Source: Armatimonadota bacterium (GTDB lineage: Bacteria > Armatimonadota > Fimbriimonadia > Fimbriimonadales > GBS-DC). From it: DNA of 64,000 nucleotides. The position numbers and the translations under genes were made by a program. Each line of letters opens with the position of its first letter. Position 1 is the stretch's first letter. The notes below the pieces were generated by a model. The model did not search any database and was not told the origin of the DNA. It saw nothing but the letters and a program-made list of their open reading frames with translations. This document shows positions 1 to 33,480 of the stretch, piece after piece. Location of the stretch: the NCBI GenBank assembly GCA_023511915.1, contig JAIMAN010000006.1, positions 3,284 through 67,283 on the forward strand, in the 5' to 3' direction.

Positions 1-355
1 TGTTGCGCGGCGTGAAGAACTCGCGCCGCTGGTGATAATAACCGAGCGCGAAGAGTCCCTGCTCGGTCAGGCTAAGCGTGGTGGGGAACTGGTCGGGCAT
101 GGCGTCTTGCAGGTCGCGTTCGAGGGCAATTGCCAGCCCTTCGCGTTGTTTGCGCAGTTTGCTCAGGTGGGGCTGCGTCATGCGCAGCAGCACGCCGAAC
201 ACGCTGGCGGGTGCGGTGGACGCGCTGCCGTAGTAGCGGTCGGTCAGCGTGGCGTTGGGGTTACCAATCGCCAGGCTCTGGATGCGTTCAATCACGGCGA
301 GCAGTCGCCCGCACTTGTAGGCGGGGTGGCCCTGCGTTTCCGAATTGTGTGTCAT
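1..355 (-). CDS. cas11c: Cas11c-like small subunit (C-terminal module of Cas8c/Csd1) encoded as its own ORF; its 3' end runs off the left window edge
   Basis: Absent from the ORF track because it is open at the window edge. Hand translation from ATG 355-353 gives MTHNSETQGHPAYKCGRLLAVIERIQSLAIGNPNATLTDRYYGSASTAPASVFGVLLRMTQPHLSKLRKQREGLAIALERDLQDAMPDQFPTTLSLTEQGLFALGYYHQRREFF. The motifs PAYxxGRLxAVxExIQ, DRYYGSAS and EQGxFxLGYYHQ are ones I associate with the Csd1 C-terminus. GGAGGTGA (369-362) lies 6 nt upstream of the ATG. Confidence 0.7.
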   Translation of the reverse strand, partial: MTHNSETQGHPAYKCGRLLAVIERIQSLAIGNPNATLTDRYYGSASTAPASVFGVLLRMTQPHLSKLRKQREGLAIALERDLQDAMPDQFPTTLSLTEQGLFALGYYHQRREFFTPRN

Positions 356-368
356 TGGAATTCACCTC

Positions 369-1631
369 CTACAGTAGGTTGTGTGAGTATAGTACTGCTT
401 GGATGAGCCGTGCGCGGTTGTCTGTGACGCTGCGCTCGGCGCTATTGCGCCGGATGGCGAGCTGCAGCAGGGACATTGGCAGCGGGTTTCCCGTGAGCGT
501 GCAACGGATGAGCGTTTCGGGCACATGGGCGGGGATGTCGTCCGCCTTGAAGTAGAGGGCGCGCGCCAGTTGGAACACGCCGACGGGCGTATCGCCTGCG
601 TGCAGTTGCTGCCAGCGGAACCACTGGGCAAGGTTGCGCTGCACGGCGGGCAGGGTGGTCTCAAGGTAGCTGCGCACGACCACGCGCGCGCTGTTCGCCG
701 AGAGCGCAACGGCGTAGAACTCGTTCGCTTGGGGCTGCGCGGGGATTCCACCCCGTGCGACGGTCTCCAAGAGTTGCTTTACTTGAACGGGGTCGGGGGC
801 CTCCAGCATCTGCACGATGCTGAACTGGGTCGGCTTGCGCGTCCAGAAGCAGTAGACGAGTTTACCCACGCGCAGTGAGGTGTCTGGATTGCGCATAAGG
901 GCATCCAACGCCTTGAGCGCGCGTTCGGAGCAGTCCAGACAGATGGGCGACACAAAGGCTTCCGTCAACCGATAGGACTCGAAGGCGTCTGCATTTGCCG
1001 AGATGAGTGACATCCCCGAGCCTTGCCCGCCGGGAATGCCCTTGATGGGCAGGTAATGCCGTCGCACGACGGGCTTGACCTGCCCGCACACAAGGCACGG
1101 CATCGGGTCACCAACAATCTTATACGCGGTGGCTGCGTAATTTGCCCAGTACTGTTGCACATCGGGTAGGTCTATCACCCGCTGCCCGTTGACGCGGAAG
1201 GTGACAGTCTCGGCAGGGTCGTAGTCGTCGGGCACTTTGAGCCTCTTGAAGTGGCGCTGGTAGAACGCGTTAACTGCGCGCGTTTCGGGCAGGTTGAGCT
1301 GCTGATGGCAATCGGCGACCAGTTGCTTGAAGGCGTTGTGCTGTTCTTGGACACGCTCGTCTTTCTTGTTCTTCGCGGCACGCCCCAGCACATAGCCACC
1401 GTTGTCGCAAAACAGCAGGGGCATAATCGCGCTGGTGCGCAGGTTGCCGAGCGTTGGGACGGCGTGCAGGTTGCCGCGCTTCTGTTTGCCCGACGCCTGA
1501 CGCTGGTCTATCATCCCGCGCGGCGCGCCGTTGACGTCCAAATCGATCAGCCAGTCCACAGGCGCGTCCGCGTACAGACAGGGCGGCAGATTCACGCGCT
1601 GACTATACTCCACCAGTCGTTGCAGGAGCAT
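369..1631 (-). CDS. cas8c: Type I-C large subunit Cas8c/Csd1, N-terminal portion only (420 aa)
   Basis: Track ORF 369..1955 trimmed to ATG 1631 (MLLQRLVEYSQRVNLPP...), which overlaps the cas5c stop by 29 nt. It has Cys pairs (PCLVCG, PICLDC) and sits between cas5c and the cas11c-like ORF. The stop is TAG at 371-369. Confidence 0.75.
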   Translation of the reverse strand: MLLQRLVEYSQRVNLPPCLYADAPVDWLIDLDVNGAPRGMIDQRQASGKQKRGNLHAVPTLGNLRTSAIMPLLFCDNGGYVLGRAAKNKKDERVQEQHNAFKQLVADCHQQLNLPETRAVNAFYQRHFKRLKVPDDYDPAETVTFRVNGQRVIDLPDVQQYWANYAATAYKIVGDPMPCLVCGQVKPVVRRHYLPIKGIPGGQGSGMSLISANADAFESYRLTEAFVSPICLDCSERALKALDALMRNPDTSLRVGKLVYCFWTRKPTQFSIVQMLEAPDPVQVKQLLETVARGGIPAQPQANEFYAVALSANSARVVVRSYLETTLPAVQRNLAQWFRWQQLHAGDTPVGVFQLARALYFKADDIPAHVPETLIRCTLTGNPLPMSLLQLAIRRNSAERSVTDNRARLIQAVLYSHNLL

Positions 1632-27909: not shown

Positions 27910-28009
27910 CGCAACGCTCCCAACAAATCTATTGTACCCCCTGAAGGTGCCACGCTTTGCGCGGCGGGCGAGTCTTCGCGTTCGGAACCCTTTGGAACGG
28001 AGGACGACC

Positions 28010-30199
28010 ATGCAGAATCGATGGCTGATACTGGGCTTGAGTGTTCTTGTCTCGGCGATGTTATGGGTTGCAGGGCGCGCCCAAGCGGTGATTACCTACC
28101 AGGGCTACCTGCGCATGGGCGGCGCGCCTGCCAACGGAAACTACGACTTCATCTTCACCCTGTACGACGACCCGATGGCGGGCAACCAAGTCGGCGTCCA
28201 AGTCAGAATCAACAACAAGCTCGTCAGAAACGGGTTGTATACTGTGGAACTGGACTTCGGTCCTCACAATGTTATCTGGAACGCCCTGCCCGCACGCAAT
28301 CGTTGGCTGGAGATTCAGGTGCGCCCAGCGGGGGGCGGGAACTTCATGCGACTTGCCCCGCGCGTGCGCATCCACGCCGCGCCCTATGCGTGGGCAGCGT
28401 TTCCTGTGGGACCCGCCGCTGGCGACCTGGCGGGCAACTATCCGAACCCGTTGGTGGTCGGTTTTCGGGGATTGCCGCTGGCGGTGTTCAACGCGGCGAA
28501 CCCGCCGAATGTCGGTGACTTTTTGTTCTGGAATGGCAACTTCTGGAGACCCGCAGGCGGCGCAGGCGGTGCAGGACCCGTGAACGGCGCCCTCTTGTTC
28601 TGGAACGCTGGCATACTCAGGTGGCAGCCGATGGCGGTTCCGCCTGCGGTCGGCAATGTGCCCATTTGGAACGGCAACGCTTGGGCGCCTGGCGTGATTC
28701 CGCCTGGAGGACCCGCGGGCGGCGACCTATTCGGCAACTACCCGAACCCGATGGTCGCAGGGCTGCGCGGGCGCCCCGTCTCGCCGAATCTTCCCCAGAC
28801 AGGACAAGTGCTGAAGTGGGATGGCATGATGTGGACGCCCGCGAACGATCTGACCGATGGCAACTTCACGCTGCCGTTCACGGGCGGCGCAGCCGTACAA
28901 AACGGCGCGACCTTCGCCATCGCCAACCCCGCCTCGACGGGTCAAGCGGTTGCGATTTCGGGCGCGTCTGCCAGCACGAGCGGCGCGGGCATTCTCGGCG
29001 AGGCGACCGCCACGACAGGCGAGGCGTATGGCGTGATTGGACGCAGCGCGAGCGAGAGCGGACGCGGCGTGTTCGGCGAGGCGACGGCATCGTCGGGCAA
29101 CACCTATGGGATGTACGGGCGCGCCAGCAGCACCAGCGGCGTCGGCGTGCTTGGCGAAGCCACCGCGACTTCGGGCGACACGCGCGGTATACTGGGGCGC
29201 AGTAGCAGCACCAGCGGCGTCGGCGTGCTTGGCGAAGCCACCGCGACTTCGGGCGACACGCGCGGTATACTGGGACGCAGTAGCAGCACCAGCGGCGTCG
29301 GCGTGCTTGGCGAGGCGACCGCCACGACGGGCAACACCTACGGCATAGCGGGACGCGCCAGTAGCACCAGCGGCGCGGGCGTGTTCGGCGAGGCGACCGC
29401 CACGACGGGCAACACCTACGGCATAGTGGGACGCGCCAGTAGCACCAGCGGCGTGGGCGTGCTTGGCGAGGCGACCGCCACGACGGGCAACACCTATGGT
29501 GGTCTGTTCCAGAACCCCTCCAGCAGTGGCGCAGGCGTGTACGGCTACGCGCAGGCGACCACAGGCACGAACTACGGCGTGGTTGGGCGTTCCGAAAGCC
29601 CTTCGGGACGCGGCGTGGTCGGCGTCGCCGAAGCCTCCACTGGCACGAACTACGGCGTGCTGGGACGCACCAACAGCAGCGCGAACGGCTGGGGCGTGTA
29701 TGCAGGCGGACGCTTGGGCGCGTCGGGCACCAAGTCGTTCCAGATTGACCACCCGCTCCGCCCAGAGACCCACTTCCTGAACCACTTCTGCATCGAGGCG
29801 CCCGAGCCGTACAACCTCTATCGCGGCACGGTGACGCTCGATGCCCAAGGCGAGGCGTGGGTGCAACTGCCCGACTACTTCGAGGCGATTAACCGCGACG
29901 CTTCGTATCACCTGACCCCTATCGGCGCGGCGATGCCCAACCTGCATGTGGCGGTGGAGATTCAGGGCAACCGCTTCAAAATCGCGGGCGGCGCGCCCTT
30001 CAAAAAGGTCTCGTGGGAAGTGAAAGCCGTTCGCAACGATCCGTGGGTGCAACAGTACGGCTACCAGACCGAGCAAGAGAAGCCGAAAGAGTATCAGGGC
30101 TTGTACCTGCACCCCGAACTGTACGGGCAACCGAAGGAGCGCGGCGTCTTCTATATGCTTCGTACCGAGCCTGCCTACCAACTGCCTGCCGAACCCTGA
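28010..30199 (+). CDS. Secreted tail-fibre-like repeat protein
   Basis: Signal peptide MQNRWLILGLSVLVSAMLWVAGRAQA, then ITYQGYLRMGGAPANGNYDFIFTLYDD (a tail-fibre-like N-domain), about ten 26-aa repeats, and a C-terminal KSFQIDHPLRPETHFLNHFCIEAPE... domain. Confidence 0.6.
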   Translation: MQNRWLILGLSVLVSAMLWVAGRAQAVITYQGYLRMGGAPANGNYDFIFTLYDDPMAGNQVGVQVRINNKLVRNGLYTVELDFGPHNVIWNALPARNRWLEIQVRPAGGGNFMRLAPRVRIHAAPYAWAAFPVGPAAGDLAGNYPNPLVVGFRGLPLAVFNAANPPNVGDFLFWNGNFWRPAGGAGGAGPVNGALLFWNAGILRWQPMAVPPAVGNVPIWNGNAWAPGVIPPGGPAGGDLFGNYPNPMVAGLRGRPVSPNLPQTGQVLKWDGMMWTPANDLTDGNFTLPFTGGAAVQNGATFAIANPASTGQAVAISGASASTSGAGILGEATATTGEAYGVIGRSASESGRGVFGEATASSGNTYGMYGRASSTSGVGVLGEATATSGDTRGILGRSSSTSGVGVLGEATATSGDTRGILGRSSSTSGVGVLGEATATTGNTYGIAGRASSTSGAGVFGEATATTGNTYGIVGRASSTSGVGVLGEATATTGNTYGGLFQNPSSSGAGVYGYAQATTGTNYGVVGRSESPSGRGVVGVAEASTGTNYGVLGRTNSSANGWGVYAGGRLGASGTKSFQIDHPLRPETHFLNHFCIEAPEPYNLYRGTVTLDAQGEAWVQLPDYFEAINRDASYHLTPIGAAMPNLHVAVEIQGNRFKIAGGAPFKKVSWEVKAVRNDPWVQQYGYQTEQEKPKEYQGLYLHPELYGQPKERGVFYMLRTEPAYQLPAEP
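28955..29710 (+). repeat. In-frame tandem repeats of 78 nt / 26 aa (two 13-aa half-units), about 10 copies
   Basis: The unit is GEATATxGxTYGIxGRASSTSGVGVL. Copies at 29129-29206 and 29207-29284 are 77/78 identical. Confidence 0.9.
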
Positions 30200-30262: not shown

Positions 30263-30673
30263 ATGCGAAAACTCATCGCAACTCTGGGAATGTTGATTGG
30301 GCTTAGTCTCGCGGGCGTGTATGCCCAGCAAGGCGGGATGTTTGACCTCACTTGGTGGACGATCGACTCAGGCGGCGTGACCTTCGCCACAGGCGGCATG
30401 TTCGAGATGGGCGGCACGGTCGGACAGCACGACGCGCACGAGGAACTCTACTTCCCCGGCGCGAACTTCCTCAACGGCGGCTTTTGGTTCGAGCCGTGCT
30501 GGACCTCCAACGGCGATGTGGACGGCGACGGCTGCGTGGACGACGCAGACCTTCTATTCGTGCTGTTTAACTTCGGGAATATGGGACAGCACCTTGCCGA
30601 TGTCAACTGTGACGAGATGGTGGACGATGCTGACCTGCTGATTGTGCTGTTTAACTTCGGCGCAGGCTGTTAG
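30263..30673 (+). CDS. Small secreted protein with C-terminal double dockerin-like module
   Basis: Signal peptide MRKLIATLGMLIGLSLAGVYAQ and a GGMFEMGGTVGQHDA...GGFW block. The C-terminus is DVDGDGCVDDADLLFVLFNFGNMGQHLADVNCDEMVDDADLLIVLFNFGAGC. GGAGGTGA SD present. Confidence 0.65.
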   Translation: MRKLIATLGMLIGLSLAGVYAQQGGMFDLTWWTIDSGGVTFATGGMFEMGGTVGQHDAHEELYFPGANFLNGGFWFEPCWTSNGDVDGDGCVDDADLLFVLFNFGNMGQHLADVNCDEMVDDADLLIVLFNFGAGC

Positions 30674-30716: not shown

Positions 30717-30738
30717 CCTTATGTGCTATAATCCCGCC

Positions 30739-33480
30739 ATGCAGGCGACCTTACCCGAAGGCTGGACGCAAGCCGAGTATGCGTGGCTGAGCGCGCTGGG
30801 GCAGGCGCGCGACCCCGCACGGCTGCTTGACCAGCATCGCGACTGGCAACGCGCGGCGTGGGTGCAGGCGAAGTTAGACGCGCTGCAGGGGCTGACCCCC
30901 GACGCGATGCAACGCCTAACGCCCGCCGTGCAGGGCTTGATCCGCCTTGCCGACCGCTTGGGCGCGCTGGAGTTGCGCTGCTACGCGCGGGAACGGCGGC
31001 TGGACTTCGCGCTGGCGTTGTACGACTTGCGGGGCGTCTCGCCCGTGATGCGCGAGTTGGCAGGGTTGCTCCCGCGCGCCTCGTCGGTGCGTCAGGTCAA
31101 CGGTTGGCGGGCGCTGGCGGGGCTGTATCGGGTGCTGGGCGAGTTGGCGCAGGCGCAGCAAGCCGCGCAACGCGCCTACACCGCTGCGCAACGGCTGGGC
31201 GACCCGACGCTCATCGGGCAGTGTGAGTATATGCTGGCACTTCTTGCGCACACTGCGGGCGACACGGACAGCGCGCTGCGCTGGGTGCAACGCGCCCGCG
31301 CCAACGCACAACGCGCGAACCAACTGCGCGGCGTCGCCGAGTGCTACACCTTCGAAGGCGTGGTGCGCCGCGCCCGCGGCGAGTACGACCAAGCCCTCGC
31401 AGCCTACCGCGCAGGCATCCAAGCGAGCGAGCAAGCCGACTTCCCGCTCGGCGTCGCCCGCTGCATCGCCAATACGGGACTGGTCTACTGGACGATGGGG
31501 CTGTACGAGGATGCGCGGCTGCACTACCGCGAGGCGATGACGCGCTTCCAGCAACTCGGCGCGGAGTGGGATGTGGCGACCTGCACGCTGAACACGGCGA
31601 TCCTGCTGCAGCACGACGGCGACTACGAGGGCGCGCTGGAACTGTACGCGCAGGCGCAGCGACGCTACGAGGCGCTGGGCGACACCGAAGGCGTCGCCTA
31701 CTGCCTGCTCAACCGCGCGGCGGTCTACGACGATATGCGCCAGCACGACCGTGCGGTGCAGACGGCGCATCAGGCGGCGACGCTGTTTGATCGCTTGCAA
31801 ATCCCGCTGCAGGCAGTGCAGGCGCGGCAACTGAAGGCGAACGCGCTGCTGCAGGTAGACCAACCCCGCAACGCGCGCCTCACGCTGGACGCCGCCCAAC
31901 GCCTGCTGGAGACGCTGCCCAATCCGACGCTGGCGGTGCATCAGGCGTACCTGCTGGGCGAAGCGCACGGCAAGTTAGGCGCGTTCCGCGCCGCGCGACG
32001 GCAGTTCGAGGCGTGCCTGCGCCTGATTCGCGAGACGCCCGCCCTGCGCGACGCGCCCCCCGAAGAGGTCGGCGTGTACCTGAGCCAGTTCCGCGAGATT
32101 GTCGCGTCGATTGCGGGCTACTACGGGCGCGCGGGCGACTGGCGCGCGGCGTTCGACGCCTGTCAGCAGGGCAAGGGCAACGCGCTGCGCTTGGCATGGA
32201 ACGCGCCCTTGAGCCTGCCCGAACTCACCCGCGCCGAGCGAGGGCGATTGGACGCCCTGCGCCAGCGCTACGAGACCGCGCTGAGCCGCCAGAGCCGCGC
32301 CCGCACGCCCGCCGAAATCCGCCAGCGTCGGCGCGAGACCGAGCGCGCCCTGCTGGCGTGGCGCGCCTACCAGCGCACGCTCGCCGCGCGCTACCCGCGC
32401 CTGAACTGGCAGCAGCCCGAACCGCTGCGCCCCGAACAACTGCCCTTAGACGAGCAGACCCTACTCATCGAGTACGCCGTCGCGCCTGATTGGTTGACGA
32501 TTGTCTGGGCGCGGCGACAGGGCGGGCGCACCCAACTCGGCGGGCAGGTCGTGCGCGTCCCCGCCGAGACGCTCCGCGCCGAGATTCAAGCCCTGCTGGA
32601 AGCCGTCGAGTCGGAGGCGTCGCCGCCGACGGTGCAGGCGCGGGCGCGCGCGCTGTACGAGCGGCTCATCCGCCCGCTGGAGGCGCAGTTGCAGGGCGTG
32701 CGGCGCGTGATGGTGTGTCCCGATGGCGACTTGCACAGCGCGCCGTGGGCGGTCTTGTGCGATTCGCGCGGGCGGTATCTGCTGGAGCGCACAGCGATTG
32801 CGAGTTGCCCGTCGGCGTCGGCGTGGGCGTCGGCGGAGCGGCTGGCGCGCCCGAAGCCGCCCCCGCGCCGCATGCTGGTGGCTGCCGTGTCGGAGTTTCG
32901 CGGGGCAGGCGGCGACACCCGCGCGCGGCTCAGCCCCCTGCCAGGCGCGCTGCGCGAGGCGAACGCTGTCCAGCGCGTGTGGGGCAGTCCTGTGCAGGCG
33001 CTGCGCAACCAGCAGGCGACCCGCGCGGGGCTGACCCGCGCACTCACGCAAGCCGATGTGCTGCACCTGGCGACTCACGCGACGCCGAACCTGCGCATGC
33101 CGATGCTCAGCGCAATCGCGCTCTGGGGCGAGTCGGAGCCGCAGTGGCTCTACGCGCACGAGGTGCTGCAGCAGCGCCTGCGCGCGCGGCTGACGACGCT
33201 TTCGGCGTGTCAGACGGCGGTCGGCGCGACCACTGCTGACGGCGCGCTGGGGCTGCACTGGGCGTTCCTCGCGGCGGGCTGCCCGACGGTGCTGGCGACG
33301 CTGTGGCGACTGCCCGACGCCGTCGCGCCCGTGTGGAGCGAGCGGTTCTACGCGCGCTACAAGGCGGGCGCGCCCGCGCTGACCGCGATGCGCGAGGCGT
33401 GCCTTGCCGTGCGCCGCACCCCGCAGTTCCAGCACCCGCGCTACTGGGGCGCGTGGCAGTGCTTCGGGGCAACGGCGTGA
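30739..33480 (+). CDS. TPR repeat / CHAT domain protein (caspase-fold peptidase family)
   Basis: N-terminal half has TPR-like repeats (YxxALxxYxxA). The C-terminal CHAT domain has LHLATHA (His) and LSACQTAVG (Cys). A TATAAT box at 30727-30732 lies 6 nt before ATG 30739. Confidence 0.75.
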   Translation: MQATLPEGWTQAEYAWLSALGQARDPARLLDQHRDWQRAAWVQAKLDALQGLTPDAMQRLTPAVQGLIRLADRLGALELRCYARERRLDFALALYDLRGVSPVMRELAGLLPRASSVRQVNGWRALAGLYRVLGELAQAQQAAQRAYTAAQRLGDPTLIGQCEYMLALLAHTAGDTDSALRWVQRARANAQRANQLRGVAECYTFEGVVRRARGEYDQALAAYRAGIQASEQADFPLGVARCIANTGLVYWTMGLYEDARLHYREAMTRFQQLGAEWDVATCTLNTAILLQHDGDYEGALELYAQAQRRYEALGDTEGVAYCLLNRAAVYDDMRQHDRAVQTAHQAATLFDRLQIPLQAVQARQLKANALLQVDQPRNARLTLDAAQRLLETLPNPTLAVHQAYLLGEAHGKLGAFRAARRQFEACLRLIRETPALRDAPPEEVGVYLSQFREIVASIAGYYGRAGDWRAAFDACQQGKGNALRLAWNAPLSLPELTRAERGRLDALRQRYETALSRQSRARTPAEIRQRRRETERALLAWRAYQRTLAARYPRLNWQQPEPLRPEQLPLDEQTLLIEYAVAPDWLTIVWARRQGGRTQLGGQVVRVPAETLRAEIQALLEAVESEASPPTVQARARALYERLIRPLEAQLQGVRRVMVCPDGDLHSAPWAVLCDSRGRYLLERTAIASCPSASAWASAERLARPKPPPRRMLVAAVSEFRGAGGDTRARLSPLPGALREANAVQRVWGSPVQALRNQQATRAGLTRALTQADVLHLATHATPNLRMPMLSAIALWGESEPQWLYAHEVLQQRLRARLTTLSACQTAVGATTADGALGLHWAFLAAGCPTVLATLWRLPDAVAPVWSERFYARYKAGAPALTAMREACLAVRRTPQFQHPRYWGAWQCFGATA

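Follow-up and report, generated by a model that had tools for sequence, protein, structure and literature searches.

Is a cas8c gene that is interrupted exactly before its small-subunit part a damaged or misread gene, or do two genes really stand in place of one? This question is raised by a type I-C CRISPR-Cas locus at the left edge of a 64,000-nt stretch of DNA (below, the window) from an Armatimonadota bacterium (assembly GCA_023511915.1, contig JAIMAN010000006.1, positions 3,284 to 67,283). In canonical type I-C systems, such as those of Desulfovibrio vulgaris and Neisseria lactamica, the small subunit Cas11c is translated internally within cas8c (McBride et al. 2020, 10.1101/2020.04.18.045682; O'Brien et al. 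2020, PMC7684278). By its reading frames, the window departs from this scheme: Cas11c is not obtained by internal in-frame initiation in a single cas8c open reading frame (ORF) and is encoded by a separate ORF after a stop codon. We consider it highly probable that this is a genuine two-gene type I-C large-subunit locus, in which a cas8c lacking its C-terminal domain (CTD) is followed by an independently translated cas11c, and that this form has been fixed in a hot-spring lineage. The original prediction, made from the letters of the window, had proposed such a split and had named a tolerated frameshift or a 1-nt sequencing error as the alternative.

Position of the break in cas8c

The genes in question lie on the reverse strand. 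The first of them, cas5c (1603-2277, 224 amino acids (aa)), is recognized by Pfam Cas_Cas5d (E 1.6e-33), TIGR01876 Cas5c (E 1.5e-46) and the Cas5c model of PADLOC (E 1.6e-64); its 159 bits against TIGR01876, above the curated cut-off of 85, place it in the type I-C kind of Cas5c. Its 3' end overlaps the start of cas8c by 29 nt (1603-1631), as it does in the related loci L003, L111 and L112 and does not in L001, where cas5c is called shorter. The CTD-less cas8c (369-1631) begins with the ATG at 1631, encodes 420 aa and ends with ...NRARLIQAVLYSHNLL-TAG, the stop occupying positions 371-369. The N-terminus of its product, MLLQRLVEY, is also kept in relatives. The element TAGGAGGTGA (362-371) joins this stop with the sequence GGAGGTGA (369-362), into which the TAG runs directly and which we take to be a Shine-Dalgarno (SD) sequence by its presumed complementarity to the 3' tail of 16S rRNA. 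A non-coding spacer of 6 nt, ATTCCA (356-361), separates it from the ATG (355-353) of the stand-alone small-subunit gene cas11c (1-355). The gap between stop and ATG is 13 nt (368-356), and cas11c is in the +1 frame relative to cas8c. The window holds the first 118 codons of cas11c, which continues past the window start and reaches a full length of 138-145 aa in relatives. Both the 420-aa Csd1-like ORF, in coordinates and sequence, and the SD-preceded ORF in another frame are as originally described. An exact sequence look-up of the 420-aa Cas8c ORF found no record, and the genomic context was therefore taken from relatives.

The proposal that the second ORF encodes the C-terminal module of Cas8c is borne out by profile alignments, in which the two ORFs cover adjacent and non-overlapping regions. 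In Pfam Cas_Csd1 (559 positions), the cas8c ORF corresponds to positions 1-434 (E 1.8e-77) and the cas11c ORF to 448-559 (E 4.8e-38); in TIGR01863 (588 positions), they cover 9-454 and 470-584, respectively. Four PADLOC Cas8c models give the same picture of two ORFs tiling one family, and among the Pfam, NCBIfam and PADLOC collections the window ORFs match Csd1/Cas8c models only. Each piece alone falls below the TIGR01863 equivalog cut-off of 218.65 bits (209.2 and 134.8 bits). No single protein of the locus is a TIGR01863 equivalog; Cas8c/Csd1 is split, not absent, and its homology is unambiguous.

Solved structures allow the break to be placed on the domain scheme of the protein. The window Cas8c ORF aligns to residues 28-441 of N. 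lactamica Cas8 (8G9T), and P0002, a full-length orthologue of the window cas11c, aligns to residues 468-572 of the same protein and to residues 499-610 of D. vulgaris Cas8c. Residues 12-119 of P0002 match the free Cas11c chains 7KHA_K of D. vulgaris (E 1.2e-24) and 8G9S_H (E 2.3e-24), the alignment to the free small-subunit chains of 7KHA and 8G9S extending along the whole length of Cas11c. By these alignments, Cas11c is a homologue of the experimentally defined Cas11c and of the Cas8c CTD. The published domain map of N. lactamica Cas8 consists of an N-terminal domain (1-259), a wedge (260-348), an adaptor (349-457) and the CTD (458-582), of which the window Cas8c retains the first three. Because the ORF alignments to the solved structures can be read against this map, the gene break falls, at the level of alignment, precisely on the border between adaptor and CTD, and this border also divides Cas8c from Cas11c.

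A misread or misassembled sequence could imitate such a break, and so could a private, recent nonsense or frameshift mutation in what is really one cas8c coding for about 540-560 aa. Split-looking calls caused by a scaffold gap, a frameshift, a truncation or contig ends do exist elsewhere (L002, L004, L102 and L103-L108, considered below). In the window, however, a stop is present in each of the three frames between 371 and 352 (TAG 371-369, TGA 364-362, TGA 354-352). All three frames being closed, no single indel can fuse the ORFs, and the fused protein of about 540 aa that correction of a 1-nt error was expected to yield does not result. Three independent DNA runs from hot springs yielded contigs that cross the junction with 0 gaps and 0-4 mismatches, and a metatranscriptome contig (799 nt, depth 24) spans window positions 1-584 without gaps and with TAGGAGGTGA unchanged. 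The identical TAGGAGGTGA junction recurs across samples, assemblers and the three DNA runs, in 23 loci including the window, and the relative frame of the two ORFs varies between strains. Comparison with fused sister genes shows a nonsense change (AAG to TAG) and not an indel as the lesion. With three closed frames and a junction present in many assemblies and in an RNA contig, the tolerated-frameshift and sequencing-error alternative is refuted, and to error or a private lesion in general we assign a negligible probability.

Conservation of the two-gene arrangement

The same arrangement was found in 22 further orthologous loci (L001, L003, which shares a contig with L006, L008, L009, L085-L101 and L111/L112), so that the physical division of cas8c at the Cas8c/Cas11c boundary is kept in 23 loci with the window included. 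These loci were fetched as relatives' loci from protein databases, GTDB genomes and JGI metagenomes and come from hot-spring metagenomes and Armatimonadota metagenome-assembled genomes (MAGs); the nearest genome matches to the window locus are Armatimonadota MAGs. Close relatives of the window cas11c ORF in protein databases are stand-alone proteins of 126-145 aa. The TAG together with GGAGGTGA is invariant in 22 split loci, and the contig of the 23rd, L099, stops at TAGGAGG. The spacer after the SD varies both in sequence and in length: the gap from stop to ATG is 10 nt (+1 frame), 13 nt (+1, as in the window), 14 nt (+2) or 15 nt (frame 0), with 6-11 nt between the GGAGG core and the cas11c ATG. 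An invariant stop and SD beside a drifting spacer and an unfixed frame form the pattern of two independently translated genes rather than of a recoding site or a fresh lesion.

These frame relations also bear on the idea that recoding (by readthrough of the TAG, +1/-1 frameshifting or hopping) still yields a full-length fused Cas8c, the split being only apparent. Two loci with the 15-nt gap, L094 and L097, would permit readthrough, since their cas11c ATG is in frame with the TAG and no other in-frame stop intervenes. In the window and most other loci, by contrast, the ATG is in the +1 or +2 frame, the window having stops in every frame between 371 and 352, and the conserved frame relation that recoding would need is absent. 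The TAG itself is an ordinary stop in this genome, because it ends 14 of the 48 predicted genes of the window; for the same reason, a reassignment of TAG was rejected. No unusual RNA structure was detected at the junction (z = -0.72), and a junction scan of the coding strand revealed no promoter-like or terminator-like site between the two ORFs. Recoding is, in our opinion, very improbable.

Both ORFs are intact in 22 of the 23 split loci, among which Cas8cN, the CTD-less Cas8c, is 63-86% identical and Cas11c 75-94%. By the Nei-Gojobori method, pairwise comparisons inside the split clade give median dN/dS values of 0.20 (cas8cN) and 0.29 (cas11c); against the window, dS rises to as much as 1.37 and 0.62, respectively. 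According to these ratios, both genes are under purifying selection.

Two further observations on individual copies were made. The metagenomic cas11c copies P0022 and P0025 are frameshifted and carry an out-of-frame tail after ...LSKLRKQ, for which sequencing error or occasional decay may be responsible. Locus L101 (505-2296) encodes an early-branching Cas8cN, 65% identical to that of the window, together with a Cas11c that is 94% identical and groups with that of L093; this suggests a mosaic locus that arose by recombination between cas8cN and cas11c.

The operon surroundings are those of a type I-C system. L111 is a 2.76-Mb contig syntenic with the window (DUF444, isocitrate lyase, malate synthase and cas5-cas8cN-cas11c, at 90-94% nucleotide identity). 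Beyond the equivalent of the window edge it continues with cas7-cas4-cas1-cas2, a CRISPR array and then cas3. The window ends inside cas11c and contains no CRISPR repeat copy; like that of L111, its array comes only after the window edge. Downstream cas7, cas3 and an array accompany the split genes in L111, L001, L003 and others, and no cas6 gene was called in these relatives' loci. In every split locus long enough to show it, cas7 directly follows cas11c, and the two genes overlap by 4 nt in L001 and L111. Two operon forms occur in the clade (L001, L003, L085-L101, L111): cas5-cas8cN-cas11c-cas7-CRISPR-cas3, and the same order with cas4-cas1-cas2 between cas7 and the array. Whereas cas3 usually heads the operon in type I-C, it is found downstream of the array in L001, L003 and L111, the loci that extend far enough. 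In the arrays of relatives, differing spacers alternate with as many as 23 copies of the repeat GTTGCACCCGCCCCCACGGGCGGGTGAGGATTGAAAC. This repeat, whose form is presumably typical of type I-C, ends with ATTGAAAC and provides a stable hairpin and an 11-nt 5' handle from ...ATTGAAAC.

This position in the operon argues against another role for the stand-alone ORF, for example that of a decoy or regulator resembling the phage-borne Cas11b homologue AcrIB4. A precedent is available, as a preprint proposes that AcrIB4, a homologue of the Cas8b C-terminus, poisons Cascade by replacing Cas11 (10.1101/2025.06.06.658234). The ORF considered here is, however, situated between cas8c and cas7, precisely where fused relatives have their Cas11c part, and overlaps cas7 by the 4 nt already mentioned. 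It is, moreover, the sole source of Cas11c in these operons, is conserved in the clade at the identity given above and occupies a chromosomal syntenic position. Such a role has next to no probability.

The locus might also be a decaying, non-functional type I-C remnant with an inactive truncated Cas8c, the ORFs of which persist by chance. This would agree with the lack of cas4-cas1-cas2 beside the effector genes in many loci of the clade and with the few frameshifted cas11c copies (P0022, P0025, L089). It is opposed by the low dN/dS medians at dS values as high as 1.37, by the intact state of both ORFs in 22 of 23 loci, by the 8-nt SD remaining invariant though the adjoining spacer drifts, by the long CRISPR arrays with different spacers next to the genes and by the RNA contig covering the region. 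We therefore regard decay as very unlikely. The dN/dS values, intact ORFs, conserved operon partners, arrays with different spacers and RNA contig together speak for a working system, and the two-gene form is a real, old and apparently functional variant of type I-C.

Probable origin from a fused gene and proposed assembly

The prevalence of split loci was estimated in two ways. An exhaustive, profile-free search gave 3603 relatives of the window cas11c ORF, and the majority of its 150 best cluster representatives, with 550-610 aa, are fused. In a set of 80 GTDB species-level loci, the Cas11c part is inside a long open frame in 77; the remaining three are split and all belong to Armatimonadota MAGs of the window's clade. 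The apparent commonness of splits in the first protein search, where only short Cas11c-only proteins came up, proved to be a bias of the word-index search when compared with the exhaustive one. Frequent independent splitting was likewise rejected, since nine short Cas11c-only loci inspected outside the clade are all artefacts or damaged genes. In L002, the apparent split is an N-gap of a scaffold. In L004, a contig of 2x coverage, a frameshift is responsible, and the cas11c frame there still includes codons for the upstream ...AALIKLIL helix. L102 contains a truncated cas8c beside a gene on the opposite strand, and L103-L108 are contig-end calls that start at an internal Met of fused cas8c.

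As a separate observation, many short Cas11c-only proteins of 125-145 aa in the catalogues (P0026, P0038, P0053, P0067, P0111, P0112; L002-L004, L102-L108) mimic split genes. The mimicry arises where a contig begins within the gene, so that the protein starts at the internal Met of fused cas8c, or where a scaffold gap or frameshift interrupts it.

All split loci form one clade in neighbour-joining trees of Cas8cN, Cas11c and the concatenated proteins. Its sister group is fused and consists of L005 (a Fimbriimonadales MAG), L007 (the Armatimonadetes MAG JP3_11) and P0122 (564 aa), each having a single ORF of 558-564 aa. Compared with the window, the fused sisters show 75-83% identity in Cas11c, and L005 and L007 show 55-60% in the N-terminal part of Cas8c. 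At the homologous site the fused sisters read ...L-K-E-V/A-...-M, with AAGGAGGT/C in frame as K-E-V/A. In L005 the DNA runs ctc AAG GAG GTa ctt act ATG; L007 has ttg AAG GAG GCg ATG, and the split clade has ctg TAG GAG GTG A.... The TAG codon of the split clade thus corresponds to AAG (Lys) in L005 and L007 and to Lys in the protein P0122. Because the fused sisters read AAG GAG GT./GC. at the same site, the split is best explained, as the simplest history, by one AAG-to-TAG nonsense mutation.

The following sequence of events may be proposed. The ancestor would have possessed a fused cas8c, from which Cas11c was already made by means of an internal SD (AAGGAGG, coding for Lys-Glu-Val/Ala) and an internal ATG. 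At the 5' edge of this pre-existing internal ribosome-binding site, a single A-to-T change would have made a TAG stop out of the AAG codon for Lys, so that Cas8c ended directly before the SD. Having become non-coding, the stretch from SD to ATG could then have drifted by indels, giving different relative frames in different strains; judged by the variable spacers, the differing frame is a secondary outcome of such indels. At present, one mRNA would carry cas5-cas8c-cas11c-cas7. Ribosomes would terminate at the TAG on top of the strong SD, and Cas11c would be begun by fresh initiation or by reinitiation. Independent initiation or termination-reinitiation is considered here because the stop codon abuts the SD.

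Several points weigh against this interpretation. The metatranscriptome contig derives from a variant about 92% identical to the window strain, not from that strain itself, and may include DNA carry-over. In L094 and L097, rare readthrough of the TAG could give some fused protein. In L089 (1942-1975), taken from an older whole-genome shotgun assembly, one base is inserted directly after the cas11c ATG. The ancestral codon has been deduced from three fused sister sequences only. Interference activity is deduced only from conservation and the arrays, and a Cascade with CTD-less Cas8c is a prediction from the genes.

If the locus is a genuine two-gene one, the expected Cascade would comprise Cas5c, Cas7, CTD-less Cas8c and only free Cas11c. 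The D. vulgaris complex has the composition Cas7(7) Cas8c(1) Cas5c(1) Cas11c(2), and in its published description the Cas8c CTD, which is identical to Cas11c, serves as the point from which the two free copies nucleate. By analogy with this arrangement, three free Cas11c per complex are predicted in the split clade instead of the CTD plus two; one of them would dock non-covalently where the complexes of D. vulgaris and N. lactamica have the tethered CTD. The original prediction saw the split as a natural experiment confirming the two-protein architecture. This holds insofar as two separate genes are present, and the case goes further than confirmation, as Cas8c has lost its own attached Cas11-like domain altogether.

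More tentatively, the uncoupling may have changed more than gene structure. The belly of the complex could be altered, with three free Cas11c or a shorter minor filament, and Cas8cN could evolve and recombine apart from Cas11c. Taken together with the tandem-domain proteins described below, the linkage of large and small subunits in type I-C might then be an evolvable setting of small-subunit dosage and modularity. Independent evolution of Cas8cN would fit the identities of 63-86% for Cas8cN versus 76-94% for Cas11c and the pairing of a 65% identical Cas8cN with a 94% identical Cas11c in L101. Cas8cN is the PAM-reading and Cas3-docking part of the protein. This wider idea is, in our view, a possibility with the odds against it.

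The opposite extreme also occurs among the relatives from the exhaustive search, namely Cas8c with 2-4 tandem, diverged Cas11c-like domains: P0149 (724 aa, 2 units), P0123 (858 aa, 3 units), P0121 (1003 aa, 4 units, at 483-590, 627-733, 760-869 and 887-994) and P0266 (1023 aa). P0121 and P0266, which are 72% identical and come from two samples, are encoded in complete cas3-cas5-cas8c-cas7-cas4-cas1-cas2 operons (L109:3628-6639 and L110:5504-8575, respectively). Since no Met is present within 30 residues upstream of any Cas11c-like unit of P0121, the small-subunit filament may be covalently concatenated in these proteins rather than internally initiated.

Elsewhere in the window, on the forward strand, there is a 755-aa ORF (27932-30199) without a Pfam match, which includes about 7 copies of a 78-nt (26-aa) tandem repeat at 28959-29545. 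It is followed by a 136-aa ORF (30263-30673), situated between it and a gene for a 919-aa TPR + CHAT-domain protein (30721-33480, forward strand).

Comparison with other type I systems

The split clade may be considered a natural deletion experiment on the tethered domain of Cas8c. Because CTD-less Cas8c has been under long-term purifying selection, as estimated from the codon substitutions, the experiment implies that Cas8c can do without a covalently attached Cas11-like domain. The finding is also relevant to compact type I-C editors, for which Cas11c already has to be provided as a gene of its own in eukaryotic cells. Public annotations name both pieces "Csd1" or leave them unnamed, and typing tools could take these loci for partial or degraded ones because neither piece passes the TIGR01863 cut-off. 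In the full-text literature searched, which left most subscription journals outside its scope, no description of a natural cas8c/cas11c split was found.

Canonical type I-C systems and the split clade have the same gene families, the order cas5-cas8c-cas7 and an SD + ATG element at the same place before the Cas11c part. They differ in that canonical Cas8c is a protein of 582-612 aa with a covalent Cas11-like CTD, whereas in the split clade a stop precedes the CTD and cas11c is separate and usually in another frame. The fused sisters L005, L007 and P0122 have an internal SD at the position homologous to that of the split clade, but in one ORF. Type I-B and I-D systems with internal Cas11 initiation follow the same principle, the internal ribosome-binding site pre-adapting the 3' part of the gene for its own expression (McBride et al. 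2020; Haloferax Cas11b, PMC11899642). Unlike those of the split clade, their large-subunit genes, which are from other Cas8/Cas10d families, have stayed single ORFs.

Separate adjacent genes for the large and small subunits, with free small subunits only, liken the split clade to type I-E (cse1 and cse2/cas11e) and type I-A (cas8a and csa5). In those types, however, other protein families are involved, and the two-gene state of the split clade arose secondarily, from a fused gene within type I-C. It has been left open whether type I systems with separate small subunits reverted from fusions or whether fusions arose several times (McBride et al. 2020, 10.1101/2020.04.18.045682). The split clade provides a concrete, polarised example of fusion reversion and a clean example of gene fission enabled by an internal ribosome-binding site. 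Because this site pre-existed in the fused gene, a reversion of this kind appears to need only one nonsense mutation.

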